NCBI GenBank assembly: GCA_963724295.1
Contig: CAVRUC010000001.1
Location: 159,822-223,821 of the forward strand
Reading direction: 5' to 3'
Source of the DNA: an uncultured Chloroflexia bacterium
GTDB lineage: Bacteria > Chloroflexota > Chloroflexia > Thermomicrobiales > UBA6265
Length of the DNA: 64,000 nt
Shown piece after piece: positions 14,004 to 58,938 of the stretch (the stretch's first letter is position 1; the number at the start of each line of letters is the position of its first letter). Both the position numbers and the translations under genes were made by a program. The notes beneath the pieces are model-generated. The model searched no databases, was not told the origin of the DNA, and was given only the letters and a program-made list of their open reading frames with translations.

Positions 14004-14105
14004 TTAACTTGCCACGCTTGGACGTGATTTCCGGGGTGGGTGTTTCACGCGTCCCAGCGCACCGTCAACAGGACCTCACGGTCGCGTCGGAACTTGGATG
14101 AATCA

Positions 14106-15689: not shown

Positions 15690-15755
15690 GACCGCACCAA
15701 CCGTTTGATATGACGTTGAGCCCGAACATCGGGGCGGGTAGAAGGGAGGAATGAC

Positions 15756-17489
15756 GTGGCAGCGCCAGTCGGGGCCTTCACATTCATGTTGCATAGCCAT
15801 CTTCCATACGCCAGACAGGCGGGGATGTGGCCACACGGCGAGGAGTGGGTGCACGAGGCCATTGCCGAAACCTATGTCCCACTTCTGAACGCTCTCTACG
15901 ACCTGCGCGAAGAGGGCATTGCCTTCCGGCTGACGATCGGCATTACGCCGATCCTCGGCGAGCAGCTGGCCGATCCGTTGATCGTGGAGCACTTCATCGC
16001 CTACGCCGCCGAACGGGCCGCCAAAGCGGCGCTGGACGTGGACCGCTTCGAGCGAGCGGGCGATGTCACATTTCGCGACCTGGCTCGCTTCTATCACCAC
16101 TGGTACGCACGGGTGCTCACGTCGTTCCAGGACAGATTCGGCGGCAATCTGCTTGGCGCGTTCGGCACGTTGCAGGACGAAGGGCTCGTCGAAATCGCCA
16201 CCAGCGCCGCCACCCACGGCTACCTGCCGCTCCTCTCCCGCGATTCCTCGATCCACGGGCAGCTTCACACCGGAGTCGAAACCTACCGCCGATGGTTTGG
16301 GCGGTCGCCGCAAGCGGTCTGGCTGCCCGAATGCGCTTATCGACCCGCGATCATTGAAGACGAAGGTGGGCGGGCTGTGCGCCGGCCTGGCCTGGAATCG
16401 TTCCTCGCCGAGGAAGGGCTACTGGTCTTTTTCAGCGAAACCCACACGGTCGAAGGCGGCCGCCCGGTCGGAATGGCGGTGCCCGGCACGATCGGACCGT
16501 ACGGCATGATCGCCCGGCGCTACGCCTCGACGATCACCCCGCCGGAGCCGGACCAGCAGCTGGCGCCGGGAACCTCGCTTCGCCCCTACTGGGTCGGCGA
16601 CGCCCCGGGGCAAGTGGCCGTCCTGGCCCGGCACGAGCGGACTGGCCAGCAGGTCTGGTCGGCGGCATTCGGGTACCCCGGGGACTTCGTCTATCGCGAG
16701 TTTCACCGCAAGGACGCCGAGTCCGGCATGCAGTATTGGCGGGTCTCCGGGGCGGGCGTTGACCTTGGCCGGAAGCAGCCGTACGACCCACAGCGTGCCG
16801 CCGATCAGGTCCAGTCGCACGCCGACCACTACGTCCACCTGATCGAGGAGCAGCTGCGCGAATTTCACGAGCAAAGCGGCGAGTTCGGCTCCATCACGGC
16901 GTCGTACGATACCGAGCTCTTCGGTCACTGGTGGTTCGAGGGCGTCGATTGGTTGAAGGCGGTCCTGCGCGGGCTTGCCGGGCGGCCGGCTGTCGAGCTC
17001 AGCACGGCGAGCCGGGTCGTCGAGGAGCACCCGCCGCGCGAGGTGCTGTCGCTGCCGGAATCGAGCTGGGGAGCCGGGGGCGGCCACTTCACCTGGCTGA
17101 ACGACGATACAGAGTGGATGTGGCCCTTGATCCACGCCGCCGAACGTCGCATGGAAGACCTCGTCACCCGTTTCCCCAGCTCGGACGGCACCCGTCGCGA
17201 CGTGCTCAATCAGGCTGCCCGAGAGCTTCTTCTCCTGCAGAGCAGCGACTGGCCATTCCTGGTGACCACGCTCCAGGCGAAGGTGTACGCCGTCGAACGC
17301 TTCCAGGAGCACCTCGAACGGTTCGATCAGCTTGCCGCGCTCGCCGAGGCCGGCACCTATTCCGCCGCGGACGAGAACTACCTCGCCGCGCTGCGCGAGC
17401 GCGATAACCCGTTTGCAACGATCGATTATGGGGATTGGGCGCCACGCCAGGGCTACGTCGGGGTGCCTCCCGCGGCGTCTGCTGTCTGA
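15756..17489 (+). CDS. GH57 family 1,4-alpha-glucan branching enzyme
   Basis: GAFTFMLHSHLPYARQAGMWPHGEEWVHEAIAETYVPLL; GH57 plus DUF1957-like C-terminal half (SSDWPFLVTT). GTG start with RBS GAAGGGAGGA. Confidence 0.85.
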   Translation: MAAPVGAFTFMLHSHLPYARQAGMWPHGEEWVHEAIAETYVPLLNALYDLREEGIAFRLTIGITPILGEQLADPLIVEHFIAYAAERAAKAALDVDRFERAGDVTFRDLARFYHHWYARVLTSFQDRFGGNLLGAFGTLQDEGLVEIATSAATHGYLPLLSRDSSIHGQLHTGVETYRRWFGRSPQAVWLPECAYRPAIIEDEGGRAVRRPGLESFLAEEGLLVFFSETHTVEGGRPVGMAVPGTIGPYGMIARRYASTITPPEPDQQLAPGTSLRPYWVGDAPGQVAVLARHERTGQQVWSAAFGYPGDFVYREFHRKDAESGMQYWRVSGAGVDLGRKQPYDPQRAADQVQSHADHYVHLIEEQLREFHEQSGEFGSITASYDTELFGHWWFEGVDWLKAVLRGLAGRPAVELSTASRVVEEHPPREVLSLPESSWGAGGGHFTWLNDDTEWMWPLIHAAERRMEDLVTRFPSSDGTRRDVLNQAARELLLLQSSDWPFLVTTLQAKVYAVERFQEHLERFDQLAALAEAGTYSAADENYLAALRERDNPFATIDYGDWAPRQGYVGVPPAASAV

Positions 17490-31649: not shown

Positions 31650-32894
31650 CTAGGACCAGTTCTTGTCCGAGCGCAGCTGCAATCGCTTGGCGGCCGCGAC
31701 GATGTCACCCAGATCCACCGGGTCGCTGAACGGATCCTCGTCGAGCTCGGTGACGCGGTTCAGCTCGCGCTGCCAGCGGCGCAGCTCGGCGACGTAGGGC
31801 TCGAACGGGACCCGGCGCAGGTCACCGCCTTCCTCGACCACATCACAGATCCCGTTGTGCAGCCACTCTCCCGAGTGCCAATTGGGCATGTCGACCGCCG
31901 GGAAGAGGCAGACGCCGTGCAGGTCGATCCCCTGCCGCACAGCGGCCAGCGACTCCTCGACGATGTCTTTGAGCCAATCCGGACGGCCGGCGCCCATACC
32001 GCTGGTCTCGCCGACGATCATCGGTCGCCGGTATCGCTCCCAGGCCCAGGTCAGCAGCTCCCCCAGCGGTTTGATGCGAGGGTCGTCGGGCGGCAAGGCG
32101 GCGTGTGGACCCTGCTCGCGAAACTCCATCTGCCCGAACGAGTAGCAGTTGACGCCGACGATATCGAGGATCTCCGGCGCGCCGCCGAACTCCGGGTGGC
32201 GCTTACCGGCGATCACGTCCCAGGCGTAGAACGTGTCCTCGAGCGTCTCCTGCTCAGCCTCGTCGGCGAGGTCAGGCCGGTCCTTCGGCGGGACCACGAG
32301 GATGAGCGGATCGATGTGAACCATACGCGCCTCCGCATCGACCTCGCGGATGGCCTTCACCGCCGCGATGTCAGCCGCGCACAGCGCGAGACGGAGCGCC
32401 CGCCGGTCCTCCTTCGTGTTCCGGAAGGGAGCCGCCCACCCCCACTCCCCACCCATGAAGCCGAAGAAAGTAATCTCGTTGATCGGCGTGAAGAAGTGCG
32501 ATCCCCGCACCCGCGGCACGACGTATTCGGCCGCCGCCCGGGCATACGCGGCGAAGCGCTCGACGAAGTCCGGCGCGAATGGGTCGGCGTCATCGGGATA
32601 GCCGTAGTGGCAAAGATCCCAGATGGGCAGGATCTGATGGCGGTTCATGGCCGCGATGAACGGCTCCAGCGACGAAAAGTCGTAGTCTCCGTCGCGCTCG
32701 ACGAGCGGCCACGGGATCCCCTCACGAGCGACGGCGATGCCCAGGCCGCGGAACATCGCATAGTCCTCGTCCACGTGGTCGGCGTGGCGCGTTTCCTCAA
32801 TCAGATTGCGCCGGCCCTGGTCTCGCCAGTCAAACGTCGAGCATTCGAAGCCCGAGAGAAAGAACGTGGGGAAGATGCCCTCATGTGTAGCCAT
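31650..32894 (-). CDS. TIM-barrel glycoside hydrolase (clan GH-A, GH1-like)
   Basis: FFLSGFECSTF...DEDYAMFRGLGIAVAREGIPW...LCHYGYPDD...TPINEITFF...IVGETSG. Specificity is unknown. Confidence 0.55.
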   Translation of the reverse strand: MATHEGIFPTFFLSGFECSTFDWRDQGRRNLIEETRHADHVDEDYAMFRGLGIAVAREGIPWPLVERDGDYDFSSLEPFIAAMNRHQILPIWDLCHYGYPDDADPFAPDFVERFAAYARAAAEYVVPRVRGSHFFTPINEITFFGFMGGEWGWAAPFRNTKEDRRALRLALCAADIAAVKAIREVDAEARMVHIDPLILVVPPKDRPDLADEAEQETLEDTFYAWDVIAGKRHPEFGGAPEILDIVGVNCYSFGQMEFREQGPHAALPPDDPRIKPLGELLTWAWERYRRPMIVGETSGMGAGRPDWLKDIVEESLAAVRQGIDLHGVCLFPAVDMPNWHSGEWLHNGICDVVEEGGDLRRVPFEPYVAELRRWQRELNRVTELDEDPFSDPVDLGDIVAAAKRLQLRSDKNWS

Positions 32895-33043
32895 GGCCTG
32901 TCCTCCAACGACGAGGACGGGACTATATCGGCGTCGGCCACCGAACGTCGAGAGAGCTACCAGGTCCCTATCTGGAGTTCGCCCAACTCAAACCATGGTC
33001 CTGCCTCACCGCCGGTTCTGAAGAAGACAGGCAAGGTGAAAGG

Positions 33044-34486
33044 TCATGGGCGTCCGTACGAGAGGTGGAACGGTCGTTGCTGATAAGCGTTTCCAACGCC
33101 GTCGGTGTAATACCCGAACGCCGCGAACCGGCGAGGGTCAGCCGTGGAAGGGCGAACCGTGATGTAATCACCCCATCGAGCCTCTGAAGACGCACCGGCG
33201 GTCGATGTCGACGTGTCGCGGAAGTAGACGACAAAGTCGCCGAGAATCCCGAAGCAGGAATTCGGATAATCGCTCGAGCCGCCTACGCCAACGCCGTATC
33301 CCACTTCACCGTTCGCAAGCGCAAGACACCCATAGGCAAATGCGTAGTCCGGGTTCCAAACCTGCCGCTCGTCAATAGTTGTCCAGCTATTCGTCGAGAT
33401 TCGAGCAATTCGAACGTGGGCGTTCGGATACACAGGCGACTCACCTGGTGCACTGGCAGCGGCATCCCATGCCACCCAAATGGAACCCTCATCGGCCAAA
33501 GCAGCTGAGACGTGGGCAACTCCCCGAGTCAACCAGTCCACACCGTCAGGATCCTCAGAATTCAAGTCTGCGTTCGTGGGGAACTGCCCGACCGCGACGC
33601 TGTGGAAACCGTAGGATCCCGCGCCATCGTCAAAGGTCATCACTTCTAGCGACGATGATGTTTCGATGGCTGCCAAATGCACGTTTTGTGGATTTTGTTG
33701 CGAAAGGTGCGAAAACGCGTAACGACGGTCGAGCGGATCCGTATGGCTCCAACTGACCGGTTGACGCTGGTCCAAATCGTCGAGCGAAAGGCTCATCACG
33801 ACCCGCCCTTGCCCGACCAGGTTTGTCGTCATGTAAAGCTGTGTTTCGCTGTAGGCCAGATCCTGGCGGTCGGTCGCTACTCCCGGGAACCCGAGATCGG
33901 AAGATGTAAAGTTGTAGACCGTCCACCCTTGCTCGACGTCCCCCCCAATGTCAGCCGAGTGGGTCACCGCCAATCGAAAGTGCCCCTCGCCTGAGCTTGC
34001 AGATGGATCGTGCTGAAGCATCCAGCAGTACAGATCACGATGAGGAACATGGATCATCACCGGGTCGACCGGGTGACCATTGGCGGCCGGCAGGAAGGCC
34101 GTCGGGCCGTGATCCGTGAAGGAGGCGCCCCCGTCAGTCGACGCCACCAGGTATGAATTACCGACGTAAAGAATGACGCCGTTAGGTGAGTCAGCGCCGC
34201 TTGGATCGGGGGGAACGCGGTTAAATATCCCGGGCAGGCTGGGATCAGTCATTGGGGTATACGATTCGAAGGTGATGGACTGAGGAGGTTCTGGCCCGGT
34301 GGTGGGGACGTTCTCTGTCGCAGGACTCTGCTCGACTGCTGGTCCCTCACCGAGGGGGATTGGTTGCGGCTCGTCCCGATCGAACTCATGCTCGGCACGC
34401 CGGCGGCGTGGCGGCTTGAGCGGTCTCGGCTTGACGTCTTCTACCGTGATAGGTTCCTTGATCTTCCCTGTGGCCAGCTTTGGCAT
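33044..34486 (-). CDS. Hypothetical protein, BNR/sialidase-like beta-propeller with a basic Pro/Lys/Arg-rich N-terminus
   Basis: 480-aa ORF in a visibly less GC-rich stretch. It has the BNR-like motif VASTDGGASFTDHG and no signal peptide. The N-terminus is KIKEPITVEDVKPRPLKPPRRRRAEHEF. Confidence 0.5.
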   Translation of the reverse strand: MPKLATGKIKEPITVEDVKPRPLKPPRRRRAEHEFDRDEPQPIPLGEGPAVEQSPATENVPTTGPEPPQSITFESYTPMTDPSLPGIFNRVPPDPSGADSPNGVILYVGNSYLVASTDGGASFTDHGPTAFLPAANGHPVDPVMIHVPHRDLYCWMLQHDPSASSGEGHFRLAVTHSADIGGDVEQGWTVYNFTSSDLGFPGVATDRQDLAYSETQLYMTTNLVGQGRVVMSLSLDDLDQRQPVSWSHTDPLDRRYAFSHLSQQNPQNVHLAAIETSSSLEVMTFDDGAGSYGFHSVAVGQFPTNADLNSEDPDGVDWLTRGVAHVSAALADEGSIWVAWDAAASAPGESPVYPNAHVRIARISTNSWTTIDERQVWNPDYAFAYGCLALANGEVGYGVGVGGSSDYPNSCFGILGDFVVYFRDTSTSTAGASSEARWGDYITVRPSTADPRRFAAFGYYTDGVGNAYQQRPFHLSYGRP

Positions 34487-45474: not shown

Positions 45475-46042
45475 ATGGCCGTTGGCCTGGGCCTCCTCGG
45501 TCGAGGAGGGAAACGACAGGCGCTCGGTTTGTGGGCGCTCCACATGGCAGGGGCCGCCCTGGCCGGCGCGCTCCTCGGCGGGCTGGTGGGCGGAATCGGC
45601 GCGCTGGCGGGGTTGGAGGCGTGGCGGCCCTGGATCATCGGCGGCGCCGCCCTTCTCGCCTTCGGGCTCGCCCTGCTGCCGCGGCCACCGAAGCTGGGCC
45701 GGCAGCGGCAGGTGCCGCGGCGGTGGGCGCCGGGGACGCCTCCCGCGCGCGTCTATCTGATCTGGGGGGCGATGCTCGGCAGCGGCGTCGCCACGCCGAT
45801 CTTCCACACCGCCTTCCTCCTCCTCCTTGCCGCCCAGCTCACGGGCGGGGTGGCGCTCGGCCTCGTCTCCGGCGCCCTGTTCGGCGCGGCCCGGCAGGCG
45901 ACGGCACTGCTTGCCGCTGCTGACCCGCCTCGACCCGGGTCGGACGATGGGTCTGCTGGAGACGCTCCGCCCCACCGCCCGCCGCCTGAACGCGGGGCTC
46001 ATCGTCGCCGGCGGCCTCGTCCTCGTCCTCGTCGGCCGCTGA
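45475..46042 (+). CDS. Polytopic (5-6 TM) membrane protein. It has a frame break near 45913 and a possible N-terminal extension to ATG 45400 through an in-frame TGA (45463-45465).
   Basis: Track ORF 45475.. is membrane-like up to ...GALFGAARQATALL. The plausible C-terminus PLLTRLDPGRTMGLLETLRPTARRLNAGLIVAGGLVLVLVGR-stop lies in the +1 frame (track ORF 45827..46042). Upstream and in the same frame, ATG 45400 encodes MFATAVMLLAVLTGLLSAHAP-TGA-TVN-ATG(45475). ATG 45475 has no Shine-Dalgarno sequence. Confidence 0.5.
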
Positions 46043-46538: not shown

Positions 46539-46711
46539 CGTCATCGCAACGATGCGCTGCCACGAAGGAGTGCAACCACAAGTACTCACTCCTGCATCAC
46601 CAGCCGTGCAGAACCTGCTGCCGAGCAGGCGAAGAATGCAAAGAGTGCAAAGGCTACGAGAGGCAGGCGCGACGGGAGCGGGGAAGGGCCCAATTGGTGA
46701 AAGGCCAGAAG

Positions 46712-48187
46712 ATGACAGCGTTGAATGAAGCCGCCCTCAGCAGCCTCGCCGCCACAGTCGGGACGCCCGGGTACGACCGGGCTGCCGTTTCAGCCGGAAT
46801 CGTGCATTTCGGCGTGGGTGCCTTCCATCGTGCCCACCAGGCGATGTTCATCGACGACATCCTGGCGCGCGGCTTCACCGACTGGGCGATCCGCGGCGTC
46901 GGCATCCTCGAGGGTGATCGGGCCGTCCGCGACGCCCTCCGCGCCCAGGACAACCTCTACACGCTCGTCACCAGCTCCCCGGACGGCACGTCCGTCGCGC
47001 GGGTGATCGGCTCGATCCATGAGTACCTCTACGCGCCGGACGACCCCAACGCGGTCCTCGATCGCCTCGCCGACCCGGCCACGCGCATCGTCTCGCTGAC
47101 GATCACCGAGGGCGGCTACAGCGTCAACGACGCCACGGGCGAGTTCGACCCGCGCGACCCGCTCACGCTGCACGATCTGCAACCCGGCACGCGCCTGCCG
47201 GTGAGCGTTCTGGGGTACATCACCGCCGGGCTGGCGCGGCGCCGGGAGGCAGGCACGCCACCGTTCACGGTGATGACCTGCGACAACATCCAGGGCAACG
47301 GGCATGTGGCGCGGACCGCCGTCCTGGGCTTCGCCGAGCGCAAAGACCCCGACCTCGCCGCCTGGATCGCCGGGAACGTGGCGTTCCCCAACTCAATGGT
47401 CGACCGCATTACGCCGGTGACCACGGACGAGACGCGCGCCAGCGTGCTGGCCGAGTACGGCATCGAGGATCGGTGGCCGGTTCACGCCGAATCCTTCGCC
47501 CAATGGGTCCTCGAGGACACCTTCCCCAGTGGCCGGCCGCCCCTGGAGCTCGTTGGCGTCCAGATGGTCGACGACGTCGAGCCGTACGAGCTGATGAAGC
47601 TGCGGCTCTTGAACGCCTCGCATCAGGGAATGGCGTATCCCGGCATCCTGGCCGGCGAACAGTTGGTGCACGAGGTCTGCCGGGATCCCCTGTTCACCGA
47701 TTTTCTCCTCGACTATATGCGCCTCGAGGCGATGCCGACGCTGCAACCGGTGCCGGGTATCGATCTGGACGCCTACTGCCGCGAGCTGATCGACCGGTTC
47801 AGCAACGAGGCCGTTCGCGACACCCTTGCCCGCCTGGCCTTCGATGGCTCGGAGCGCATCCCCAAGTTCCTCCTGCCGGTGCTACGCCAGCAACTGGAGA
47901 CCGGTGGCGAGATCCGGCGCAGCACGCTCGTGCTGGCCGCCTGGAGCCGCTTCCTGGAAGGACGCGATGAGAACGGCGACCCGACGCCCATCAACGACCG
48001 GCGGGCGACGGAGCTGATCGCGGCCGCGCACGCAGAGCATGCCGAACCAGGTTCCTTCCTGGACTACCAGCCCGTCTTCGGTGATCTCGGGACGAACCCG
48101 CGCCTGCGCGATACATTTATTGTCTGCCGCGCGTCGCTTGTCGATCGCGGGGCACGGGCCACAGTCTCGGCGATTGCCGACTTCTGA
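46712..48187 (+). CDS. Mannitol dehydrogenase family oxidoreductase (mannitol 2-dehydrogenase / fructuronate reductase-like)
   Basis: From ATG 46712: GIVHFGVGAFHRAHQAMFIDD...TITEGGY...MTCDNIQGNG...FPNSMVDRITP...LRLLNASH. Confidence 0.85.
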   Translation: MTALNEAALSSLAATVGTPGYDRAAVSAGIVHFGVGAFHRAHQAMFIDDILARGFTDWAIRGVGILEGDRAVRDALRAQDNLYTLVTSSPDGTSVARVIGSIHEYLYAPDDPNAVLDRLADPATRIVSLTITEGGYSVNDATGEFDPRDPLTLHDLQPGTRLPVSVLGYITAGLARRREAGTPPFTVMTCDNIQGNGHVARTAVLGFAERKDPDLAAWIAGNVAFPNSMVDRITPVTTDETRASVLAEYGIEDRWPVHAESFAQWVLEDTFPSGRPPLELVGVQMVDDVEPYELMKLRLLNASHQGMAYPGILAGEQLVHEVCRDPLFTDFLLDYMRLEAMPTLQPVPGIDLDAYCRELIDRFSNEAVRDTLARLAFDGSERIPKFLLPVLRQQLETGGEIRRSTLVLAAWSRFLEGRDENGDPTPINDRRATELIAAAHAEHAEPGSFLDYQPVFGDLGTNPRLRDTFIVCRASLVDRGARATVSAIADF

Positions 48188-48338
48188 GAGGCGGGGTCCT
48201 TTGTGTTGGCTGTTTCATTGTGCCGGGGAAGACCTGCTTCCTGATGGGCGGGCAAGGCTGCGGCTCTGATCTCTGCAACTTCCAGGGTCGTCGAAAAGGC
48301 CAAGAATCAGTGCGCAGCCGGTCGACGTACTCATCCCT

Positions 48339-49265
48339 CTAGGGCTTTGTGGCGTCCTCCATGTGGATAAGCTGCTCGGTCTGGTGAGTACCCTGAGCGA
48401 TCCTCAACGTCGTACGTTCTGGTTGGCCTGGTTGCTCAGTGTTGACCATGAACAGTTGCTCGTCTCCGACCGTCGTCTCCCCCCACGAGACATGCGCAGT
48501 GCCGACGAGCCCATGCTGCAACGGTATCGGGGTCATCCTCAGATCGCACTCGATTTCGACCTTGATTGCCCGCACGCGCCATTTAGTGCCATAGGTGTCG
48601 ATCAGGTAGCAGCCAGGGACAAGCTCAAACATTGCAGTTGCCCGGCTCCGGTCCTGATTCGCGTAGAAGAAGTCCATCAAATTCTTGCCCGACTCCGGCC
48701 GCCGCAGCACCTGTTCTGCTAGCTCCCCGACAGGCCCGGCTTTCTCGTCATCCTTTGAGTAGAGTGGTTCACCAAGACCCACCTCGGGCTCCTCAGGGTG
48801 CCCGTACTCTTCTGCCAATACTGCGCGACACTTCACGATATTGACGTTGAATCGACCAAGGAACACCTCCTTGAGTTTACTGACCTTCCCCGCCCAGTCA
48901 GATTCGATAGCTTCCTGCAGGTCCATCGTTTCAATACCAAACTTTTCCGCTTCATTCAGGGCGTTCTTTGTGAACCCGGTCCGGGATACGAGGATCAGTT
49001 TGTCTGTCCGGTGCTCATGCTTGCCGCGCATCTCCTGCACCCACCCAACGTCAGCAGCGCGACTCCGGTCGCGAACTTCGACTCCTATCTGCAGGGTAAT
49101 TTGGCCTGCTGGTTCTTCGATCAAGATGTCGACTTCTTGCGCTTTGCCTCCGAGCCGATCCGGAACCATGGCGGACTCGCTGACTGTAGCGCGATCATGG
49201 AGTTGGCGATGCAGTAGATAGATCAGGCGTTGGAATTCGTTCGAACGTCTCGGCATGTCAACCAT
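48339..49265 (-). CDS. Restriction-endonuclease-like (PD-(D/E)xK, Mrr-cat-like) N-terminal domain protein with an unknown C-terminal domain
   Basis: 308-aa ORF in the low-GC island. NEFQRLIYLLHRQL...AQEVDILIEE...IGVEVRDRSRAADVGWVQEMRGKHEHRTDKLILVSRTGFTKNAL matches the D...E-x-R/K core plus helper pattern of REase-like folds. Confidence 0.55.
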   Translation of the reverse strand: MVDMPRRSNEFQRLIYLLHRQLHDRATVSESAMVPDRLGGKAQEVDILIEEPAGQITLQIGVEVRDRSRAADVGWVQEMRGKHEHRTDKLILVSRTGFTKNALNEAEKFGIETMDLQEAIESDWAGKVSKLKEVFLGRFNVNIVKCRAVLAEEYGHPEEPEVGLGEPLYSKDDEKAGPVGELAEQVLRRPESGKNLMDFFYANQDRSRATAMFELVPGCYLIDTYGTKWRVRAIKVEIECDLRMTPIPLQHGLVGTAHVSWGETTVGDEQLFMVNTEQPGQPERTTLRIAQGTHQTEQLIHMEDATKP

Positions 49266-49353
49266 CTACCCCGTATCTTTCATTAGCCTATATCGAGTTG
49301 AGTCAATTGTCCCATGCTCAGTCAAAGACCTTAAGCTGAAGTCAGCGGCGTGA

Positions 49354-51876
49354 CTAGCCAATCTGCACGTTGAGAATCCGCAAATGATGAAGCGTCTCGT
49401 CTATGCGTTCTTGGTCGCCGATCCTGCTCCAGATCGGAAGTGCCTTTTGCAAAGCCTTGCGAGCGCCAACCAAGTCGCCTTGCTGTACGAGAACATTTGC
49501 GAGGTTTCGATTGTAAATTGCAATCCCGCGACTATCCTCTCCAGCGGTCTTTTCTGTAATCCTGATCGCGCGTTCAAAACGGTCCCGCGCGCCGGCGAGA
49601 TCTCCCTCAGATTGCAAGATATCTGCAATATTGTTCAGCGAAGTTGCTACTTGCGGATGATCTGGTCCGAACTTGGTTTCTCGAATGCGGAGGGCACGCT
49701 CATGCAGCTCCATCGCTTCGTTGGTATTACCTATACCTCGAAGGAGGTTTGCAAGGCTATCCAGGTCAGGCGTTACCGCTGGATTGTCAACGCCGTATGC
49801 CGTCTCATCGATCGCTAGTGCACGTTCAATATTGGCTCTTGCATCCTTGGTCCGGCCTTGCTTCATTAGTACCCGGGCCAACTTGAGAAGGGCAACTGCA
49901 ACCATCGGGTGGTCAGCCCCGTAGATCATTTCATTGAGATAAAGTGACCGCTGTAACAGCGCGCGAGCAGGCCGTAGTTCTCCTTGATCACTAAGAACGT
50001 CCCCTAAATTGCCGAGGGCGATAGCGACCTCCCGGCTCTCAGCGCCATCAATTCGTTCATGAATTCGGAGCGCCTGCTCCAGCACATTCCGTGCGGCCCG
50101 GTTATCTCCCTGCCGTCTGAAGACAATGCCGAGATCATTAAGCGCTGTCGCGACGTCCGAGTGCTCAGGACCGAATACCCTCATTCGAATGGATCGAACT
50201 TCTTGAAGTAGCCCTCGAGCCGCCTCCAACTTTCCTTGATCCCGTAAGATGTTGCCCATCAGTGCTAAGTCTGTTGCCGTCTCCGGATGCTCTTTCCCGT
50301 GCGCTGCCTCGTCGATGGCGAGTGACCTCTCGATGGCCTGCAGCGCAGCGGGTAGGTCTCCTAGATCCCGCAGGATACGGGCGAGATGATGAAGACCTAT
50401 CGCTTGGTCAACATGATCGCGGCCGAGTTCGCTCTCCGAGAGCATGAGAGCATGCTCTAGCATCGGACGCGCCTCTTCAGGTCGGCCCCGCGCCGCCAGA
50501 TGAACTCCAACGCGGCCATTGAGTCTCGCGACCGCCAAGCCGGTGAGGCCTATTTCGGTTCCATGTTGCATCACGGCCAGAGCGTGAGGCAGGATCCGTT
50601 CCCAACTGGGCCAGGTTCGCGGATCGTATCCCTCGTCTGGCAATGCGGCTGCCACGACGTAAGCCGCGGCCGCAGCCCATGCCCGCTGCTGGTCTCGAGT
50701 AAGGTGATCCTGCACTACAGCCTGGACGAGACGGTGAACAGACACCGTCTGGTCGTTAATTACCTCCACGAGAGAATAACGGCGAAGGGCCACAACGGCG
50801 TCATCTAGAGCAACCCGGTCCTTCACGGTCGCTCGGAGTGGCTCGGCCAAGGCCTCAGCACCTGCCATGAGCAACTCGAGCGGAATCGCGTCCGGAGCGA
50901 GGAAGGCAAAGATCTCCAATAGACCTTCTGCCGCCGGTGCCTGGTCGGCCGCTCCCTCGAACGCCAACTCCCACGCTGTGGCAACGGTGGCTTCGTAGTC
51001 GGTCAACTCACCTCGCTTCAGCACCTCCCGACGCTGCGTGCGGAACCGCTCCAGATACCCCTCAAGGGTCAACACGCGAGCGTTGATGTAGGCTGCCGCC
51101 TGCGAAAGTGCGAGAGGCAGGTATCCCAGTTCCTCGGCCAGTGTCGTCGCTGACGCTTCGTTCGGCTGCCCTGTCCGGGTCAGTAGGAATGCTATTGCTT
51201 CGGCCGGCGGTAGAACGGGAACCGCCATCGCTAGCACGTGCGGGGGCCAATTCGGGTTGAGAGACGTGACAACCACATGTCCGAAACCAACCGTCGGCAG
51301 ATACGGCTCCAGGATCGACGGATGATCCGCGTTGTCGAACACCAGCAGGTACCGCTGGCCCCCGCGGTCCAGCCAGCGACGAACCGCCAGGATCGTCTCC
51401 TCCTGAGCTTGGCGTGCAGCCTCAACGGTCGTTGACTGGTCCTGAACCACGGCCTCGGGGAGCCCAAGTTCGCGAGCAAGGGACGCAAAGTCGGCAGCGA
51501 GCGTGGACTCATCTTGGGCTCTGATCCACCAGATTACGTCATAGATTCCGGCATGGCGGTAGGCGTACTCGATGGCGATTTGGGTTTTGCCCATTCCACC
51601 TAGTCCATGAAGTGCAACTAGTTGAACTGGGTCCGATGTGCCGCTTGAAGTCAATGACTCATGCAATTGCGCTATCAGATCCACTCTGCCAGTAAAGTTG
51701 GGATTCCGACGATGGGGAAGATTGCTAACACGCTTAGCGATTCCGTGTCCGGAAGTCCTACCCGGCACACTAGCGGAGCTTGAAGACTCGGTTTGTGGAG
51801 ATACGCTTGGGATGTAGAGTGTGCCCAGAACCTCAAATGCGAAGGCAGCTGCGTGCCGGATGCAGTAACTTGCCAA
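49354..51876 (-). CDS. STAND NTPase: NB-ARC ATPase plus about 9 TPR (TPR_10/12-type) repeats. This is the intact 840-aa part of a larger PNP-NB-ARC-TPR gene.
   Basis: Walker A LHGLGGMGKTQIAIEYA and Walker B YLLVFDNADHP. Repeated 42-aa units follow (e.g. ATALNDLGIVFRRQGDNRAARNVLEQALRIHERIDGAESREV). The N-terminal ASYCIRHAAAFAFEVLGTLY continues the PNP domain encoded upstream. Confidence 0.85.
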   Translation of the reverse strand: MASYCIRHAAAFAFEVLGTLYIPSVSPQTESSSSASVPGRTSGHGIAKRVSNLPHRRNPNFTGRVDLIAQLHESLTSSGTSDPVQLVALHGLGGMGKTQIAIEYAYRHAGIYDVIWWIRAQDESTLAADFASLARELGLPEAVVQDQSTTVEAARQAQEETILAVRRWLDRGGQRYLLVFDNADHPSILEPYLPTVGFGHVVVTSLNPNWPPHVLAMAVPVLPPAEAIAFLLTRTGQPNEASATTLAEELGYLPLALSQAAAYINARVLTLEGYLERFRTQRREVLKRGELTDYEATVATAWELAFEGAADQAPAAEGLLEIFAFLAPDAIPLELLMAGAEALAEPLRATVKDRVALDDAVVALRRYSLVEVINDQTVSVHRLVQAVVQDHLTRDQQRAWAAAAAYVVAAALPDEGYDPRTWPSWERILPHALAVMQHGTEIGLTGLAVARLNGRVGVHLAARGRPEEARPMLEHALMLSESELGRDHVDQAIGLHHLARILRDLGDLPAALQAIERSLAIDEAAHGKEHPETATDLALMGNILRDQGKLEAARGLLQEVRSIRMRVFGPEHSDVATALNDLGIVFRRQGDNRAARNVLEQALRIHERIDGAESREVAIALGNLGDVLSDQGELRPARALLQRSLYLNEMIYGADHPMVAVALLKLARVLMKQGRTKDARANIERALAIDETAYGVDNPAVTPDLDSLANLLRGIGNTNEAMELHERALRIRETKFGPDHPQVATSLNNIADILQSEGDLAGARDRFERAIRITEKTAGEDSRGIAIYNRNLANVLVQQGDLVGARKALQKALPIWSRIGDQERIDETLHHLRILNVQIG

Positions 51877-52546
51877 CCTTCAGCGTCGGTTACGCTCTTT
51901 CCTTCGATAAGGTCTGAAATTCCCCGAATAACAAGTGCATCCGTTCGTAAATTAGCCCGAATCGCCTCCAGAAAACCGAAGCCCTCCATCTCTACAGCAG
52001 CGGCGTCACTGTAATTCTCTCGGAGGAACTTGTAGACCGGGGACCGCGTCGACGCGACAATTTCGCACCAGCGGCTACGGGCTTGACAATGGCATCAGGT
52101 AGTAACTCTGGAGCGGTGGGTAGAATGCGTTTCTGCCAATTCTGGTTGCGAGCGACGGCTCTAGCGCGTTGTTCCATTCGGTAAGACGAAAAATGCAATT
52201 CTGGGCGAGCGTAGAATTCCACAGCCGCCTTACCAGATTCATACTCATAGACTTTCGTGGCCGCAACAACTCCACCGAGTTGGACATCCTTAAGGCCTCC
52301 CGCGATCCCAACGAACAATGCGACGTCAGGAGAAAAGTTCGCTATGGCCCTCTCAGTTTCGAACGAAGCCCGAACGTTTCCCATCCCGATCTGCGCGATC
52401 GCTACTGTCCAAGATAGTTCCCCTACGGTGAATCCCTCGTTCGTAAACGGTGCCTGCGGGATGCGTTTCTTCTGTGATATCGTCAATATGATCCCGTACG
52501 GCCTGGAACTCCTACAGGTATCCGTCAGAATGACTGCGGTCGGCAT
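51877..52546 (-). pseudogene. PNP_UDP (purine/uridine nucleoside phosphorylase-like) effector domain of the STAND protein, broken by at least 4-5 frame changes
   Basis: Stitching three minus-strand frames gives MPTAVILT..PVEFQAVRDHIDDITEETHPAGTVYERG/FTVGELSWTVAIAQIGMGNVRASFETERAIANFSPDVALFVGIAGGLKDVQLGGVVAATKVYEYESGK...PVAAG/EIVASTRSPVYKFLRENYSDAAAVEMEGFGFLEAIRANLRTDALVIRGISDLIEGK..DAEGWQ/YCIRHAAAFAFEVL. Breaks lie near 52505-52525, 52433-52440, 52057-52064 and 51868-51880. Confidence 0.75.
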
Positions 52547-52702
52547 TACATCACGCCCGCAGGTTGAAAGATCACGCGGCTCATGCGTTGTCTCCGGATA
52601 CACTGGCAACTTGACCTTAAGGAGTCTTGACGCCATGGACCTTCGAGCGGCAAAACCCAGTCTCTGGACTACGAAGCGTTCGGGCCATAGAACGCGTACC
52701 AC

Positions 52703-53296
52703 TTGGGTCGTGGCTTGACGCTCAACATTGGCGCGACGCAAGCATACCTTCGCGGTGGACTGACGCTATTTGAAACATACGAGGTGGAAGATGGACCGGA
52801 GGAAGGCTGGCCATGCCCGCCAGAGCAATATGCGACGATAGTAGAGACTGCTCAGTCATTTGTTGGGCTCCGAGTGGTTGCCCTTGGCAGGAAGCAGCTG
52901 ACCACGCCAGTGCCTGGTTTCAAGGAGATTCCGCCCGTCGGTGAACCGTCCCACGTCGTACTTCCTCAGGAGATTACGTTCAGAATCGGACAGTTTGTGG
53001 CCAAAGGTCCACAGGTGGCCGCATACATAGTCTATGTTGGCGATACGATTCGTCACTATGCCGCTGTGATATCAGGTGTAACCTATCAGAACATTGACCA
53101 GATCGTCGCGGCACAATTCGTCTCGAATGTCTTTGAATGGGTAAGTTATGGGAAGGTTGGTCCTACATTTCTTGATGAGTTGGTGGCGGGCGATACTGCC
53201 AAATTCAAACCCGCCTTCTTTCTAGAGAACCTCCGAGATGCGATCGACTCAGTAGTTAGTGGAGTACTTCGTTCCCATCATCACTTTGTGAACTGA
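52703..53296 (+). CDS. Hypothetical protein (island orphan)
   Basis: 197-aa ORF divergent from the STAND gene, with protein-like composition (YATIVETAQSFVGLRVVALGRKQL...YIVYVGDTIRHYAAVISGVTYQNIDQIVAAQFV). I recognise no family and the start is uncertain. Confidence 0.45.
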   Translation: MGRGLTLNIGATQAYLRGGLTLFETYEVEDGPEEGWPCPPEQYATIVETAQSFVGLRVVALGRKQLTTPVPGFKEIPPVGEPSHVVLPQEITFRIGQFVAKGPQVAAYIVYVGDTIRHYAAVISGVTYQNIDQIVAAQFVSNVFEWVSYGKVGPTFLDELVAGDTAKFKPAFFLENLRDAIDSVVSGVLRSHHHFVN

Positions 53297-53346
53297 AAGT
53301 TGATGTCTTTGGAGGGCGAATCAGACTACTCATCTCGAGCAGATGA

Positions 53347-53998
53347 ATGCGTATAAGAATGATGGCGAAAGCGTGGAGGAAATTAAAAGATACCTCAAGC
53401 ACAGTGGATGAAATCTGTATGGAGTTTACCAGTGGTGTGATTGCCAGCTATTCCACTCTAGACATGTTGTATCAGCTTTGGGTGCTTGTTGTGCGAACAC
53501 CGTTTGGGGGTCCAGATTTTCCAAATAAGCTTCACTTCCCTGACAGCAATCCTGGGGACTCCCTCAAAAAATGGAACGTGTCAGTGCCGCAAGGTTTACA
53601 GCTTCCTGACCTTGCCCGAGCCATCCCCAATCTCTCGAAAGGTCACTTCGCTGATTTGCGAAAGCTCAGAAACGATCTCGTTCACAACATGGCCTCTGAC
53701 GATGTTAGAGCGTTGGTTTATATAGGAATTGGGCTCCCTCGCGATTAACGGACGGTCCCTGCAGTACGCTCACTACCTGACTCGGGACATCGAAAAAGGG
53801 GGCGACTCTGTGACGCACCCCTGGGTCCGGAGATTCTACCAACAGCAGCGCGATGCACAAGAGGAACTGTATCGATGGAATCTAGAGATAACGCAGTGTG
53901 TAATTGATACACTCGAGTGGCTAAGCATCTATTTGAAGTATGTGGCCGGGCTTGAAGGAACTGAGGATCGTGATTACGTGAGACAAGAGCCTCTCTGA
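53347..53998 (+). CDS. HEPN-domain protein (Rx4H motif). It is apparently split by one frame change near 53728-53735.
   Basis: ORF 53347..53748 contains HFADLRKLRNDLVHN (R at 53668-53670, H at 53683-53685, R-N-D-L-V-H). The overlapping ORF 53729..53998 (LGSLAINGRSLQYAHYLTRDIEKGG...) continues plausibly as the same protein (...ALVYIGIG/SLAING...). Confidence 0.6.
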
Positions 53999-54099
53999 CC
54001 TGCCTCCGTTCGTTTGACGCCTCCAAGCCCGCTCCTATCATCGCCAACAGGCGCGGACCCGTTCCACGCCCGCGTATTCAGTATCGACAGGAAGACCCC

Positions 54100-55151
54100 G
54101 TGCAGACCCGAGACGAGATCGGCTAACGACGCTCGCCAGCTGCGCTGGCTGAGCGGCCAAATTGGGCCCGGCGGCCCTGGCGCAGGTACTGCGTCCGTTG
54201 ACCCTCGCCACCCACCCGGATCTCGTCGTCGGTCTCCAGACCAGCGACGATGCCGCGGTCTATCGGATTGCGCCCGATCTGGCGGTCGTGCAGACGGTCG
54301 ATTTCTTCACCCCGATCGTCGACGACCCCTGGACCTACGGCGCCATCGCCGCCGCCAACAGCATGAGCGACGTCTACGCCATGGGCGGCACGGTCCTCTT
54401 CGCCCTCAATGTCGCCGGGTTCCCGGAGGACCTGCCGCCGCAGATGATCACCGCCATCTTCCAGGGCGCGGCGGAGAAGGTCGCCGAGGCCGGCGCCATC
54501 ATCGCCGGTGGGCACACCGTCACCGATGCCGAGCCGAAGTTCGGGCTCGTCGTCACCGGTACGATCCATCCCGACCAGGTCTGGACCAAGGCCGGCGCGC
54601 TCCCGGGCGACGTCCTCTTCCTCACCAAACCGATCGGCACCGGCATCGTCGCCACCGCGCTCAAGAATCAGAAAGCGCGCGCCGAGGACGTCGAGGCCGC
54701 CACGGCATCGATGCTGACCCTCAACCGCGCCGCCGCCGAGACGGCGAGAGCGGCGGGTGGCGTTCACGCCGCGACCGATATCACCGGCTTCGGTCTGCTC
54801 GGGCACGCCAGCGAGATGGCGGACAAGAGCGGCGTTGGTCTGCAGATCAACGCCTGGGCGGTCCCGCTCCTGCCCGGGACGGAGGGGTACGCCGGGGCCG
54901 GTCTCATCGCCGGTGGTCTGGGGCGGAATCGGGACTACTTCGCGCACCATGGCGGCGGGATTCGTTTCGATCCCAACGTGGAAGCCGTGCAGCAGACCAT
55001 CCTCTTCGATCCGCAAACCTCCGGCGGTCTCCTCTTCGCCGTCGATGCCGGTCAGGCCGATGCCTTCGCAACCGCGTTCACCGCCGCCGGCATCCCGCTC
55101 TGGCGCATCGGCCAGGTCGTCCAGGGCGCGGGCATCGACGTTTCCCCGTGA
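54100..55151 (+). CDS. selD: Selenide, water dikinase (selenophosphate synthetase), selenocysteine-containing form. One frame discontinuity lies at 54120/54121.
   Basis: Track ORF 54162..55151 is clearly SelD (DFFTPIVDDPWTYGAIAAANSMSDVYAMGG...ATDITGFGLLGH). In the same frame upstream: R-L-T-T-L-A-S-C-A-G-TGA(54150-54152)-A-A-K-L-GPAALAQVL, which is the SelD N-terminal loop with Sec in place of Cys. That frame has no start codon. GTG 54100 (RBS AGGAAG) encodes VQTRDEI in the +1 frame, and one extra C at ATC|GG would give ...DEIRLTT. Confidence 0.85.
54157..54180 (+). promoter_or_regulatory. Candidate bacterial SECIS hairpin for the selD UGA
   Basis: CCA-(AATT bulge)-GGGCC-CGGC-GGCCC-TGG. The apical loop lies 17-20 nt after the UGA and contains G. 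Confidence 0.5.
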
Positions 55152-56059: not shown

Positions 56060-56201
56060 TCCCATACCGCAACACTGTAAGCGTGTCATGCTGGGGAACG
56101 AACGTGCACGTGCAGCATCTCGGCTAAGAGCGCGTTGTACAGCAACCCAGCGTGTTGAAAAAGCCGGTGGCGAGATCGCGGTCCATCGGCGAGTTCGGGG
56201 A

Positions 56202-56229
56202 TTGACAGCCCTGGCCACTCGCGTACTGT
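56202..56229 (+). promoter_or_regulatory. Candidate sigma-70 promoter for the serine hydrolase gene
   Basis: TTGACA (56202-56207), 16 nt, TACTGT (56224-56229). The RBS GGAAGGAG precedes ATG 56303. Confidence 0.4.
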
Positions 56230-56302
56230 TGGCGCGCACACAGGCTGCGCCGGCGGCACGGCAGTCGACGCCGGCGCGATTGCGGAAGGAGATGCGTCGC
56301 TC

Positions 56303-57709
56303 ATGCCTCACGCACGTCACGTCAGAAGCGCCGGCATCACGTCGCGACGCGCGGTGCTGGCCGGTGGCGCCAGTGTCGCCGCGGCATTCCTGGCGGCTGC
56401 CGCTCCCCACGCGCAGGCGCAGGACGGAACCCCGGAGGCGAGCGCGACGACCGGGCCGCCTTTCCCTCCCGACGAGCAACTCGCCCTGGACCAGATCGTC
56501 GCCTCGCGGGTGGGCGGGCAGATGGTCCCGGGCGCGGTGGCCGGCGTCGCCATCCCGGGGCGCGGCTCCTGGGTTTATGCGCAAGGGATCGCCGATCTGC
56601 GCACCGCCGCCCCGATCGCCACGGACGACCACTTCCGCATCGCCAGCGTCAGCAAGACCTTCACCGCGACGGTGATCCTGCAGCTGGTCGACGAAGGCAA
56701 GCTCGCGCTCGACGATACCCTCGAGCCGTACGTGCCGGGGATCCCGAACGGGTCTGAGATCACCATCCGGCAGGTCCTGCAGATGACCGCCGGCATTTTC
56801 GACTACTCCCTGGACGAGCAGGTCGTGGTCGACTACGACCGCGACCCGACGATCCTGATCACCCCCGAGGACGTCATCGCCATCGTCGATCGGCACGGGC
56901 CGGACTTCGCCCCCGGTGCCTCGCTCAGCTACTCGGACACGAACTACTTCCTGCTCGGCCTGGTCATCGAGAAGGTGACCGGGATGGGTGCCGTCCAGGC
57001 CCTCCAGGAGTACGTCTTCACCCCGCTCGGTTTGACCGAGACGAGCCTGCCGGACACTCCGGAGATGCCCGCGCCGTTCGCCCGCGGCTACATCGCGACC
57101 TCGGCGACGGACGACACGTTGCGGGACGTCACGTTGAGCAACCCGCTCACGGCCTGGACCGCCGGCGGCATCGTCTCGACGCTGGCCGACCTCCTGGTCT
57201 GGGCGGAGGCGCTGGGGGCGGGGACGTTGCTCACGCCGGAGACGCAGCGCGAGCGGCTGCGCTTCGAGCCCGTCCCCGGCGGCTCTCGGCTGCCGGTTAG
57301 CTACGGGCTGGGCATCATGGATGTGGCCGGATTCGTCGGGCACAACGGGGCCATCTACGGCTACAGCACCTGGATCCTCTACGACCCCGAGAGCCAGGGC
57401 TCGCTCGTGGTGCTGGCCAACCGCGGCGAGCTGACGACGGAGTATGCCGCGGCGATCGCCGTCGACATCATCGAGTTGCTCTTCCCGGGGCGGATCGAGG
57501 CGGCGCTGGCCGCTCCGCCGCCGGGGACGCCTGGTGCCGTAACGCCGCCTGTGATGGCCATTCGCCCGGCAGAATACGAGTTCGTCCCGCGCCGCTCCCT
57601 GCCCCGGAGCGCGCCATGCTCGGTCCCGCCAAGGCCCGCCGCCTCGACGCACCGATCGCCGTCTCGCTGGTCGACCTCGTCCCGGCCGATAACCTCTACC
57701 GGCACGTGA
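56303..57709 (+). CDS. Serine hydrolase (beta-lactamase / D-Ala-D-Ala carboxypeptidase-related) with a Tat-type signal. The 3' end probably runs into an IS remnant.
   Basis: Signal SRRAVLAGGASVAAAFLAAAAPHAQA and SxxK motif FRIASVSKTFTA; ...YSDTNYFLLG...GHNGAIYGY. The last ~50 codons (from about 57550) are low-complexity and overlap transposase-like sequence in another frame. Confidence 0.8.
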   Translation: MPHARHVRSAGITSRRAVLAGGASVAAAFLAAAAPHAQAQDGTPEASATTGPPFPPDEQLALDQIVASRVGGQMVPGAVAGVAIPGRGSWVYAQGIADLRTAAPIATDDHFRIASVSKTFTATVILQLVDEGKLALDDTLEPYVPGIPNGSEITIRQVLQMTAGIFDYSLDEQVVVDYDRDPTILITPEDVIAIVDRHGPDFAPGASLSYSDTNYFLLGLVIEKVTGMGAVQALQEYVFTPLGLTETSLPDTPEMPAPFARGYIATSATDDTLRDVTLSNPLTAWTAGGIVSTLADLLVWAEALGAGTLLTPETQRERLRFEPVPGGSRLPVSYGLGIMDVAGFVGHNGAIYGYSTWILYDPESQGSLVVLANRGELTTEYAAAIAVDIIELLFPGRIEAALAAPPPGTPGAVTPPVMAIRPAEYEFVPRRSLPRSAPCSVPPRPAASTHRSPSRWSTSSRPITSTGT

Positions 57710-57909
57710 AGGCGACGCTTGATCTGTCGTTTGTGCGCGAGTCGGTTGATGAATACCGTTGCCCGGAGGGACAGATCCTCCGTCGCTATGCGACCAAACG
57801 CACCGAGGGCGTAGTGGCGTACCGAGGTGAGGCGACCATCTGCAATGCCTGCCCGGTCAAGGCCAAGTGCACCACCAGCGACCACGGGCGCAAGGTGCAG
57901 CGCCTGGAA
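57616..57909 (+). mobile_element. IS1182/IS5-like transposase remnant with an internal deletion of the DDE core
   Basis: The N-terminal transposase motif APIAVSLVDLVPADNLYRHVKATLDLSFVRE is joined directly (near 57757) to the C-terminal motif YRCPEGQILRRY...YRGEATICNACPVKAKCTTSDHGRKVQR. No catalytic region is present. Confidence 0.6.
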
Positions 57910-58047
57910 ACTCCGTGCAGCAACGGGTTCGTACTTGCCCGGCAGCACGCACGCGGGGGTCGCGGCACGATATTGCAACACGCTCGAACTCTGCTATCTG
58001 TTGCAATACACCGAAATCCTTCGACCGCGGCACAAAATGACACCTCG

Positions 58048-58938
58048 TTGCGTGACACCACGGAATCTGGCGAACGGCACGTCGGCATCGGCGCCCCGGC
58101 CAAGCTGAATCTCGGTCTGGAGGTCATCGGCCGCCGCGACGACGGCTTTCACGAGATCGCCACCATCTTCTTACCATCGATCTCTACGATCGCCTCACCC
58201 TGTCGCCGGCCGATGACCTGGAGCTGAGCTGTGACGACGATTCGCTGGCCGGCACGGACAATCTCGCTCTGCGCGCGCTCGACCTCTTACGCGATGAGAC
58301 GAGCTACTCTGGCGGCGCCCGCATTCACCTCCGCAAGCGCATCCCCTCGCGGCCGGTCTCGGCGGGGCGTCGAGCGACGCCGCCGCGGCACTTCTCGGCG
58401 GACGCGAGCTCTGGCAGCTGGACCTGAGCGACGCCGAGCTCCACGATCTCGCCGCCCGTCTCGGCAGCGACGTCCCCTTCTTTCTGCGCGGTGGCTGCGC
58501 CATCGGGCGCGGCCGCGGCGATCGTCTCGAGCCGCTGCCGTTTCCCCCGGATTGCTGGTTCGTGGTCGTCGTGCCGGACGTGCAGATCCCGGCCAAGACC
58601 GCCAGCCTCTACGCGCGCCTGCGTCCGGAGGACTTCAGCGACGGCTCCCGCATAGCCGCCCAGGCCGCGCGCCTGCGATCTGGTCAGGCCCTTGACCCGA
58701 CCCTGCTCGGGAACGCCTTCGCCCGCCCCCTCTACGCCATCGCCCCCGAGCTGGCCGCCCTACCGGACACCATGCGTGACGCCGGCGCCGAATCGGTCGC
58801 CATTTCCGGTGCCGGCCCCACGCACTACGCGCTTACTCACCGATGAGCCCAGGCCGAAAGCTCGCGGCACGTCTCCGCGAGCGACTCGGGGACCGCGCTC
58901 AGGTCTTCGTCTCCAGACCCGCGCCACCTCAGTCCTGA
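58048..58938 (+). pseudogene. ispE: 4-diphosphocytidyl-2-C-methyl-D-erythritol kinase, reading frame broken at least 3-4 times
   Basis: Frame 1 (TTG 58048): ..GIGAPAKLNLGLEVIGRRDDGFHEIATIF. Frame 2 from about 58173: TIDLYDRLTLSPADDLELSCDDDSLAGTDNLALRALDLLR...[11 protein letters not shown]. Frame 3 from about 58350: [22 protein letters not shown]...[20 protein letters not shown]...[11 protein letters not shown]. The tail ..KLAARLRERLGDRAQVFVSRPA lies in yet another frame and ends at TGA 58936-58938. Confidence 0.8.

Follow-up and report, generated by a model that had tools for sequence, protein, structure and literature searches.

A low-G+C insert at a variable dehydrogenase–selD junction in a Thermomicrobiales genome carries three candidate anti-phage genes

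An A/T-rich segment of 5716 bp lies between a gene of the mannitol 2-dehydrogenase family and selD in a 64-kb stretch of contig (hereafter the window) from an uncultured member of the Thermomicrobiales (Chloroflexota). We consider it reasonably likely that this segment came in by horizontal transfer as cargo of a recombination hotspot, and that it comprises three candidate anti-phage genes that travel independently of one another: a large STAND NTPase with a nucleosidase-type N-terminus (gene 1), a nuclease-like protein related to the Mrr catalytic domain (gene 2) and a two-domain protein with a HEPN-like C-terminus (gene 3). The insert and its parts are as follows.

48293..54008, no strand: low-G+C cargo, 5716 bp; homology to the related contig L001 stops at 48292 and restarts at 54009, and homology to contig L056 begins at 48293
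48339..49265, minus strand: gene 2, intact Mrr_cat-like PD-(D/E)xK protein, 308 aa (Pfam PF04471, 30 bits, cut-off 21)
49354..52546, minus strand: gene 1, STAND NTPase with PNP_UDP, NB-ARC, DUF7779 and TPR domains, ~1065 aa after frame correction (Pfam; NCBIfam NF040586)
49411..50505, minus strand: TPR_10/TPR_12 array of gene 1, putative sensor (TPR_12 E 3e-71, TPR_10 E 1e-67)
51334..51672, minus strand: NB-ARC P-loop core of gene 1 (PF00931, AAA_16)
51850..52546, minus strand: PNP_UDP (nucleosidase-type) effector domain of gene 1 (PF01048, E 2e-20; PADLOC matches)
52635..53998, plus strand: gene 3, a single two-domain gene of ~453 aa with an N-domain of unknown family and a HEPN-like C-domain (intact counterpart P0154 in contig L063)
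53668..53685, plus strand: R-N-D-L-V-H (Rx4H) motif of the HEPN-like domain, with R and H invariant across 37–43 family members

The segment stands apart from its surroundings in composition. Its G+C content is 0.553 versus 0.662 in the rest of the window, 5.8 standard deviations under equal-length windows (234 such windows elsewhere in the stretch served as reference, with a minimum of 0.623 and a standard deviation of 0.018). Along a 500-nt profile, G+C drops from 66–76% to 46–62% between ~48.2 and 54.0 kb, and three bins of the island are the lowest (0.52–0.59) among the 2-kb bins over the 64 kb. The initial annotation had singled out the region as A/T-rich on the basis of two spot counts, both of which were reproduced exactly (26/60 at 53401–53460 and 47/60 at 45601–45660); the open reading frame (ORF) coordinates it gave are likewise as listed. 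These measurements support a compositionally foreign insert. Mildly lowered G+C (0.62–0.63 versus ~0.66) is also seen in the 2-kb bins of 8001–16000 and 32001–34000.

Comparison with a relative sets the borders of the cargo at single-base precision, at 48293 and 54008. This relative is represented by L001, a contig of a metagenome-assembled genome. When the flanking dehydrogenase was searched against one genome for each species, the matches assigned the window to Thermomicrobiales, and L001 gave the best locus (94% protein identity). Its dehydrogenase and selD are neighbours again, with none of the island genes between them, and its flanking genes share 93–94% protein identity with those of the window. 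The same two breakpoints in L001 enclose a different low-G+C segment of 3.66 kb (46–55% G+C).

L001:11607-15263: cargo of the related contig, encoding four proteins: a P-loop STAND-like ATPase (320 aa), a TPR-like protein (412 aa), one of 136 aa and one of 188 aa that matches PADLOC PDC-M34B

The last of these matches the PADLOC candidate at E 2e-12, and its C-terminus looks frameshifted. A third contig, L063, which was reached via gene 3, carries the same island in the same place. Furthermore, the left end of the cargo (GAAAAGGCCAAGAATCAG...) coincides exactly with the end of homology to L056, an unrelated metagenome contig. Since the cargo differs in L001 and is the same in L063, with the same borders, the dehydrogenase–selD junction is a variable hotspot that holds different candidate defence cargo in a sister genome. 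This comparison spans three genomes (the window, L001 and L063); ten other Thermomicrobiales loci share the dehydrogenase gene only and are thus uninformative for synteny. The check in relatives that the initial annotation had called for found the island missing from L001, where other cargo takes its place, and shared with L063. Parts of the cargo are closer to L063 (98.9% identity for Mrr_cat, 99.5% for the PNP domain and 99.3% for gene 3) than the flanks are (93.5–94.2%), and so were exchanged more recently than the flanks diverged; the NB-ARC/TPR part is 95.0% identical.

No sign of an integrative element accompanies the insert. Neither tRNA nor tmRNA genes were found in the whole 64-kb window, no Rfam family was matched in it, repeat searches returned only short chance-level pairs and no repeats at the island borders, no recombinase or integrase domain was detected among the island ORFs, a megablast search of the island against plasmids gave no match, and a promoter and terminator scan stayed at background level. 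These results give no support to an integrase-mobilised genomic island: integrase, tRNA target and direct repeats are all missing, just as the initial annotation had observed at the borders. Hotspots of variable defence cargo between core genes, free of an integrase, are established in enterobacteria and Pseudomonas, and the present junction resembles them in its identical breakpoints in three related genomes, its low-G+C cargo and its lack of integrase, tRNA and repeats.

Once corrected for frame, the product of gene 1 matches Pfam PNP_UDP_1 at residues 9–215, followed by NB-ARC/AAA_16, DUF7779 and TPR_10/12 at residues 683–1047, with six to eight stretches matched by TPR_12/TPR_10 (a single hit to TPR_12 may take in some two repeats). 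Both Walker motifs are intact, A as GLGGMGKT (51583–51606) and B as LLVFDNAD (51325–51348). PADLOC models matched on the PNP region are a PN-superfamily effector of CBASS type (E 1.4e-13) and PDC-M60C (E 3.7e-15), so that the predicted PNP_UDP domain (PF01048) resembles PNP effectors of defence systems. PNP domains of immune type have been described at the N-termini of Avs/NLR-like proteins, and ATP-nucleosidase activity has been reported for Cap17, for DtcC and, in fungi, for the PNP domain of the PNP-NLR-TPR protein “NLRN” (Rousset et al. 2023, 10.1101/2023.01.24.525353). The window protein is like these Avs/NLR-like PNP proteins in joining a PNP_UDP effector, an NB-ARC STAND module with Walker A and B, and C-terminal TPRs in one polypeptide. 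By domains, by PADLOC effector match and by this precedent, the sequence supports the architecture that the initial annotation had proposed, namely the effector/STAND/TPR arrangement of Avs/NLR-like defence proteins with a PNP-type N-terminus, and the individual PNP, NB-ARC and TPR assignments were borne out by Pfam.

Relatives of gene 1 are abundant (1831 at E ≤1e-10, many of them bearing the name “nucleoside phosphorylase/TPR repeat protein”), and identity reaches 52% in the best match over the full length. One homologue, P0004 on L056, is 74–76% identical from NB-ARC onward and has a TIR domain where the window has PNP; DNA homology to L056 correspondingly breaks at window position 51609. 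Judged from these alignments, PNP and TIR on a shared NB-ARC/TPR backbone are a case of effector swapping, and this swap on a conserved backbone, together with the occurrence of homologues as single genes, is a further likeness to Avs/NLR-like PNP proteins. The PNP-STAND homologues P0003 and P0005, both on long contigs, stand alone among housekeeping genes. Codon differences from L063 are unevenly spread over the protein: 23 are non-synonymous and 7 synonymous in the TPR array (49411–50505; a tentative count, L063 being error-prone here), compared with 25 non-synonymous and 49 synonymous in the rest of the 840-aa STAND ORF (mainly NB-ARC and linker). Either diversifying selection on the sensor or mistakes in the L063 sequence could account for the excess in the array.

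Gene 2 begins 88 nt downstream of the STAND gene on the same strand and consists of an N-terminal nuclease-like domain and a ~180-aa C-terminal domain of no known family. The first of these scores above the Pfam Mrr_cat gathering threshold, as the initial annotation had proposed, and the homologue on L056 reaches 24 bits in the same model. Across the family (17 homologues found), E44, D46, E63 and K82 are invariant, the three acidic residues being a point of likeness to Mrr and type IV restriction-like nucleases. A comparison of the window protein with PDB sequences by phmmer found no solved relative, a metagenome scan with the single protein returned nothing, and no recorded contig turned up when this protein and the 746-aa STAND product were looked up by exact match. 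The Mrr_cat domain also draws a sub-threshold match to the Aravind-lab profile NACHT-associated inactive REase 1 (NA-iREase1; 20.4 bits, cut-off 27). A STAND or TIR gene adjoins Mrr_cat in four of the seven loci examined: the window, L063, L056 (where a homologue 82% identical to the window gene lies directly downstream of the TIR-STAND gene) and L061 (where it follows a stand-alone TIR protein). No STAND gene lies beside the homologue in L059, L060 or L062. In L059, a DDE transposase lies ~750 bp from the Mrr_cat homologue (70% identical, L059:8670-9956), and the region, with several gene fragments, looks like the scar of a mobile element.

Gene 3 had been described as two genes, a 197-aa orphan (52703–53296) and a separate HEPN protein, and here the initial annotation must be revised. 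In L057 and L058, the sequence that matches the “orphan” directly precedes the HEPN-like part and shares its frame and one uninterrupted ORF; in L063, the intact protein P0154 (488 aa as called, with a likely true start at M36 that gives ~453 aa) aligns to the “orphan” with 99.5% identity and to the HEPN ORFs with 94% identity as a single intact ORF. Because the two parts are fused in all three of these proteins, the “orphan” is the N-terminal half of gene 3, and the island has three genes, not four. The corrected HEPN-like ORF by itself had only four word-indexed homologues, among which R..RNxLVHNM is invariant, and no Pfam domain. An exhaustive profile search widened the family to 62 clusters, mostly 400–460 aa long with the HEPN-like part at the C-terminus, and across 37–43 aligned members the R and H of Rx4H, G399, Y412 and D419 are invariant.

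Assignment of this C-terminal domain was weighed against the published description of HEPN domains, which specifies a conserved Rx4-6H motif, a polar residue after the R and a place where the third helix ends (Anantharaman et al. 2013, PMC3710099). Like the Cthe_2314-like HEPN family (PF18730), gene 3 has an invariant R-N-x-x-x-H in which the residue next to R is polar, and an acidic residue is conserved upstream of it. One family member, P0177, which matches the gene 3 profile at E 7.8e-9, passes Pfam HEPN_Cthe2314 (31.3 bits, cut-off 27.1), and the occurrence of the family in defence neighbourhoods is a further likeness to Cthe_2314-like HEPN proteins. AlphaFold2 (AF2) models of gene 3 reached a pLDDT (predicted local distance difference test) of 85 over the full chain and of 86 when the C-terminal domain was modelled by itself. 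They placed Rx4H where the third helix ends, ahead of a beta-hairpin and a long final helix; helix order and motif position in the model are compatible with the description in PMC3710099. That source lists no architecture or operon for Cthe_2314. From the motif and one transitive Pfam link, we regard the HEPN identity of the domain as probable rather than proven. A Foldseek match of the gene 3 model to Csm6 was at chance level (E 1.8) and was not used as evidence.

The neighbourhoods of gene 3 homologues repeatedly contain conflict-type genes. One adjoins SIR2 and HerA (L068), another a patatin-type, CBASS-like effector (L076), a third lies 1.5 kb from a HEC-06/GmrSD-like gene (L069) and a fourth adjoins a PycC-like cyclase-domain protein (L073). 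Gene 3 homologues also keep ~50% G+C in hosts of 64–72% G+C, and two of them form single-gene patches (L057:5500-7500 and L069:6001-7287), the former having 48–53% G+C against ~72% around it, within an element that carries ParB, SSB and a large helicase. That element looks conjugative or integrative. Metagenome and viral contig scans for gene 3, made with a narrower family alignment (A9), found no homologue in viral contigs. Taken by association, these neighbourhoods support a defence role and frequent lateral transfer of the single gene. The family as such (~62 clusters at 50% identity) has no Pfam or PADLOC match, and we tentatively entertain, as a possibility somewhat short of favoured, that gene 3 represents an undescribed single-gene abortive-infection family in which a new N-terminal domain of ~230 aa would sense infection and release a divergent Cthe_2314-like HEPN RNase. 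The gene would hop by itself, as an islet with ~50% G+C, between the defence islands of high-G+C bacteria that are not related to each other.

Whether the three genes act together was left undecided in the initial annotation, which allowed for one new system or several stacked ones. Stacking fits better: every gene occurs elsewhere without the other two, and the best reading of their distribution is therefore three stacked units in a hotspot. One integrated multi-gene system, in which, for example, the STAND protein would sense infection and act in trans to license the HEPN-like protein, the Mrr_cat nuclease or both, we judge improbable. It would suit the contiguity of the genes (STAND and Mrr_cat on one strand, gene 3 divergent from the STAND start across ~90 nt), the presence of the entire island in both the window and L063, the retention of the NB-ARC/TPR plus Mrr_cat block in L056 at 82% DNA identity, the order of TIR protein and Mrr_cat homologue in L061, and the sub-threshold NACHT-associated profile match; against it, P0003 and P0005 lack Mrr_cat and gene 3 partners, the Mrr_cat homologues of L059, L060 and L062 lack an adjacent STAND, and the gene 3 homologues in L057, L058 and L068–L078 never adjoin a STAND or Mrr_cat gene. 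Moreover, the window, L063 and L056 carry close relatives of one element, so these co-occurrences are not independent. A two-gene system of STAND and Mrr_cat, which draws on the same pairings, is also quite improbable, as both genes occur alone elsewhere; the loci compared place the pairing within one closely related element, which does not establish it as a system.

Composition, borders, domain content, gene fusion, distribution and neighbourhoods are observed, and every biochemical or defence step that follows is inferred. By analogy with known NLR-like proteins, the C-terminal TPR array of gene 1 would bind a phage-derived ligand, the NB-ARC ATPase would then oligomerise, and the PNP-type nucleosidase so activated would destroy (d)ATP or a related nucleotide and abort the infection. 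Gene 2, which moves in a block with the NB-ARC/TPR backbone, may act as an independent restriction-like nuclease or as an accessory of the STAND protein. Gene 3 may encode a HEPN-type RNase that is restrained by its N-terminal domain until infection.

Two of the three genes are broken in the window as assembled. Frameshifts were called by direct comparison with L001 and L063, a frame-plot of third-position G+C (GC3) being too noisy by itself. Gene 1 required four corrections (51858, 52061, 52434 (2 nt) and 52512–52522), all in the PNP domain, and gene 3 another four (52663, 53295–53300, 53389 and 53741) in addition to a TAG at 52689–52691; two stop-creating substitution events lie in gene 3. 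The initial annotation had advised working with frame-corrected proteins; this proved necessary for gene 1 and gene 3 and unnecessary for the intact gene 2. All island disruptions are private to the window, with L063 in frame at every one, and adopting the L063 state at 7 indel positions restores the STAND gene to a single ORF of 1065 aa. Comparable damage affects host genes and sister assemblies. Essential ispE (58087–58926), for a kinase of the MEP pathway, contains an internal stop in the window, occupies three frames or more and has about a dozen assembly-private 1-nt deletions, a window-private 1-nt deletion at 54121 cuts off the GTG start of selD, and a conserved membrane-protein gene upstream of the dehydrogenase (45475–46042) is shifted near 45911 where L001 has a single ORF. 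For its part, L063 lacks single nucleotides at 33 private sites of the NB-ARC/TPR region, which the window has intact; its dehydrogenase gene is split as well, and L001 appears frameshifted in rsmA. In 51610–54008, finally, ~10 indel sites stand against 15 substitutions in sequence that is 99.3–99.5% identical to L063. Because ispE and the selD start are broken alike and the ratio of indels to substitutions is unlike that of natural decay, the disruptions are most likely clustered errors of long-read metagenome assembly, and the organism itself probably has all three genes intact.

A decaying remnant, in which frameshifts and stops have truly inactivated the PNP domain and the HEPN-like gene in this strain, is accordingly unlikely, and is the residual competing account of the damage. 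Its appeal lies in the distribution of the lesions: eleven window-private indel sites and two stop-creating substitutions fall in 51858–54121 and almost none in NB-ARC/TPR, Mrr_cat or the dehydrogenase gene (mtlDH), and self-toxic effectors often end inactivated. An indel-to-substitution ratio far above that of natural decay speaks against it, as do the private 1-nt indels of the same kind in ispE and at the selD start and the private frameshifts that the sister assemblies have in mtlDH, STAND and rsmA. Pseudogenisation of the PNP effector as the primary explanation of its four frameshifts was dropped in view of this shared error pattern. Two cautions follow for long-read metagenome assemblies: where indel errors cluster, a toxin domain can look pseudogenised when it is not, and a single gene can be taken for an “orphan” and its partner.

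Several observations nonetheless count against a cargo of working anti-phage genes. The window-private disruptions, two stop-creating substitutions among them, cluster in the two predicted toxic modules (51858–53741), a pattern that true inactivation would yield as well. In gene 2, the canonical lysine of (D/E)xK is Arg or Val throughout the family, unlike in Mrr nucleases, from which the 180-aa C-terminus of no known family is a second difference; the invariant K82, 19 residues past the canonical position, could substitute for it. In gene 3, the window protein draws no direct hit from the HEPN models in Pfam, PADLOC and NCBIfam, none matches P0154, and a Foldseek search of both whole-chain and domain models found nothing in the PDB at E ≤0.001 and only chance-level matches in BFVD. 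Gene 3 thus differs from HEPN proteins in having no direct match to a profile or solved fold, as well as in its extra ~230-aa N-domain of no known family; of the HEPN protein with an Rx4H motif that the initial annotation had named, the motif is present and family-invariant and the direct profile support is missing. For gene 1, PADLOC matches at E ≤0.01 comprise PDC-M60C, the PN-superfamily effector and a generic TPR model, with none to Avs/AVAST (Avs1–5); the PADLOC run thus upheld the effector and not an Avs assignment, and the protein differs from Avs1–5 in its ATPase, which is of NB-ARC/FxSxx_TPR type. Lastly, residues 281–1028 match NCBIfam NF040586, “FxSxx-COOH system TPR protein” (485.6 bits, cut-off 300), and NB-ARC/TPR proteins of this family are also annotated outside defence.

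The last two points would suit an account without defence, in which the NB-ARC/TPR protein is a signalling or regulatory STAND (in an FxSxx-COOH context, or as a MalT/AfsR-like regulator) and its neighbours are unrelated accessory genes. An FxSxx-COOH system consists of the TPR protein plus neighbouring genes for a radical-SAM/SPASM maturase and an FxSxx-COOH peptide; neither partner was found in the island, whose cargo is filled by the three genes. The N-terminus, furthermore, is an enzymatic PNP effector exchangeable with TIR, a hallmark of immune NLR-like proteins, and the gene sits in a variable hotspot beside other conflict-type genes. We therefore hold a role outside defence to be highly improbable, and retain the reading of three separately mobile candidate defence genes.

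On this reading the insert is credible as a defence islet and fairly ordinary as such. Earlier examples exist of PNP-NLR-TPR proteins, of Mrr-like nucleases, of HEPN toxins and of integrase-free hotspots. What is new is this particular hotspot of the Thermomicrobiales, together with the naturally occurring TIR/PNP swap pair and the small unannotated HEPN-like family with its defence neighbourhoods. The first documents a variable defence hotspot in a group with almost no experimental data on phage defence, the second offers a clean natural case of a TIR-for-PNP swap on one NB-ARC/TPR backbone, and the third, a family associated with defence islands and bearing a HEPN-like motif, is a candidate for a new single-gene system.

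The genes on either side of the insert are host genes.

46709..48187, plus strand: left flank, dehydrogenase of the mannitol 2-dehydrogenase/fructuronate reductase family (NCBIfam matches, E 1e-106 to 1e-110)
54090..55151, plus strand: right flank, selD (TIGR00476, 351 bits; alignments with L001 and L063)

The NCBIfam matches of the dehydrogenase (fructuronate reductase and D-arabinitol 4-dehydrogenase) are under the cut-offs of their models, and its protein is 94% identical to that of L001. In selD, an in-frame TGA (selenocysteine, Sec) at 54150–54152 falls on the catalytic Cys/Sec position (…SCAG-U-AAKLGP…), also in L001 and L063, and SelD is therefore a selenoprotein; Rfam gave no SECIS-type family. 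Just after the dehydrogenase stop, 75 nt (48195–48269) match, at 80%, a stretch upstream of the dehydrogenase gene in the relative (L001:9444-9518), and may represent a short repeated intergenic element. Beyond selD, the alignments indicate a second small variable site between rsmA and ispE: its ~2 kb (56060–58091), in which 56303–57709 encodes a 468-aa serine hydrolase or class C beta-lactamase-like protein (well under all NCBIfam cut-offs), is missing in L001 and at least partly present in L063, where homology extends to ~57.7 kb.

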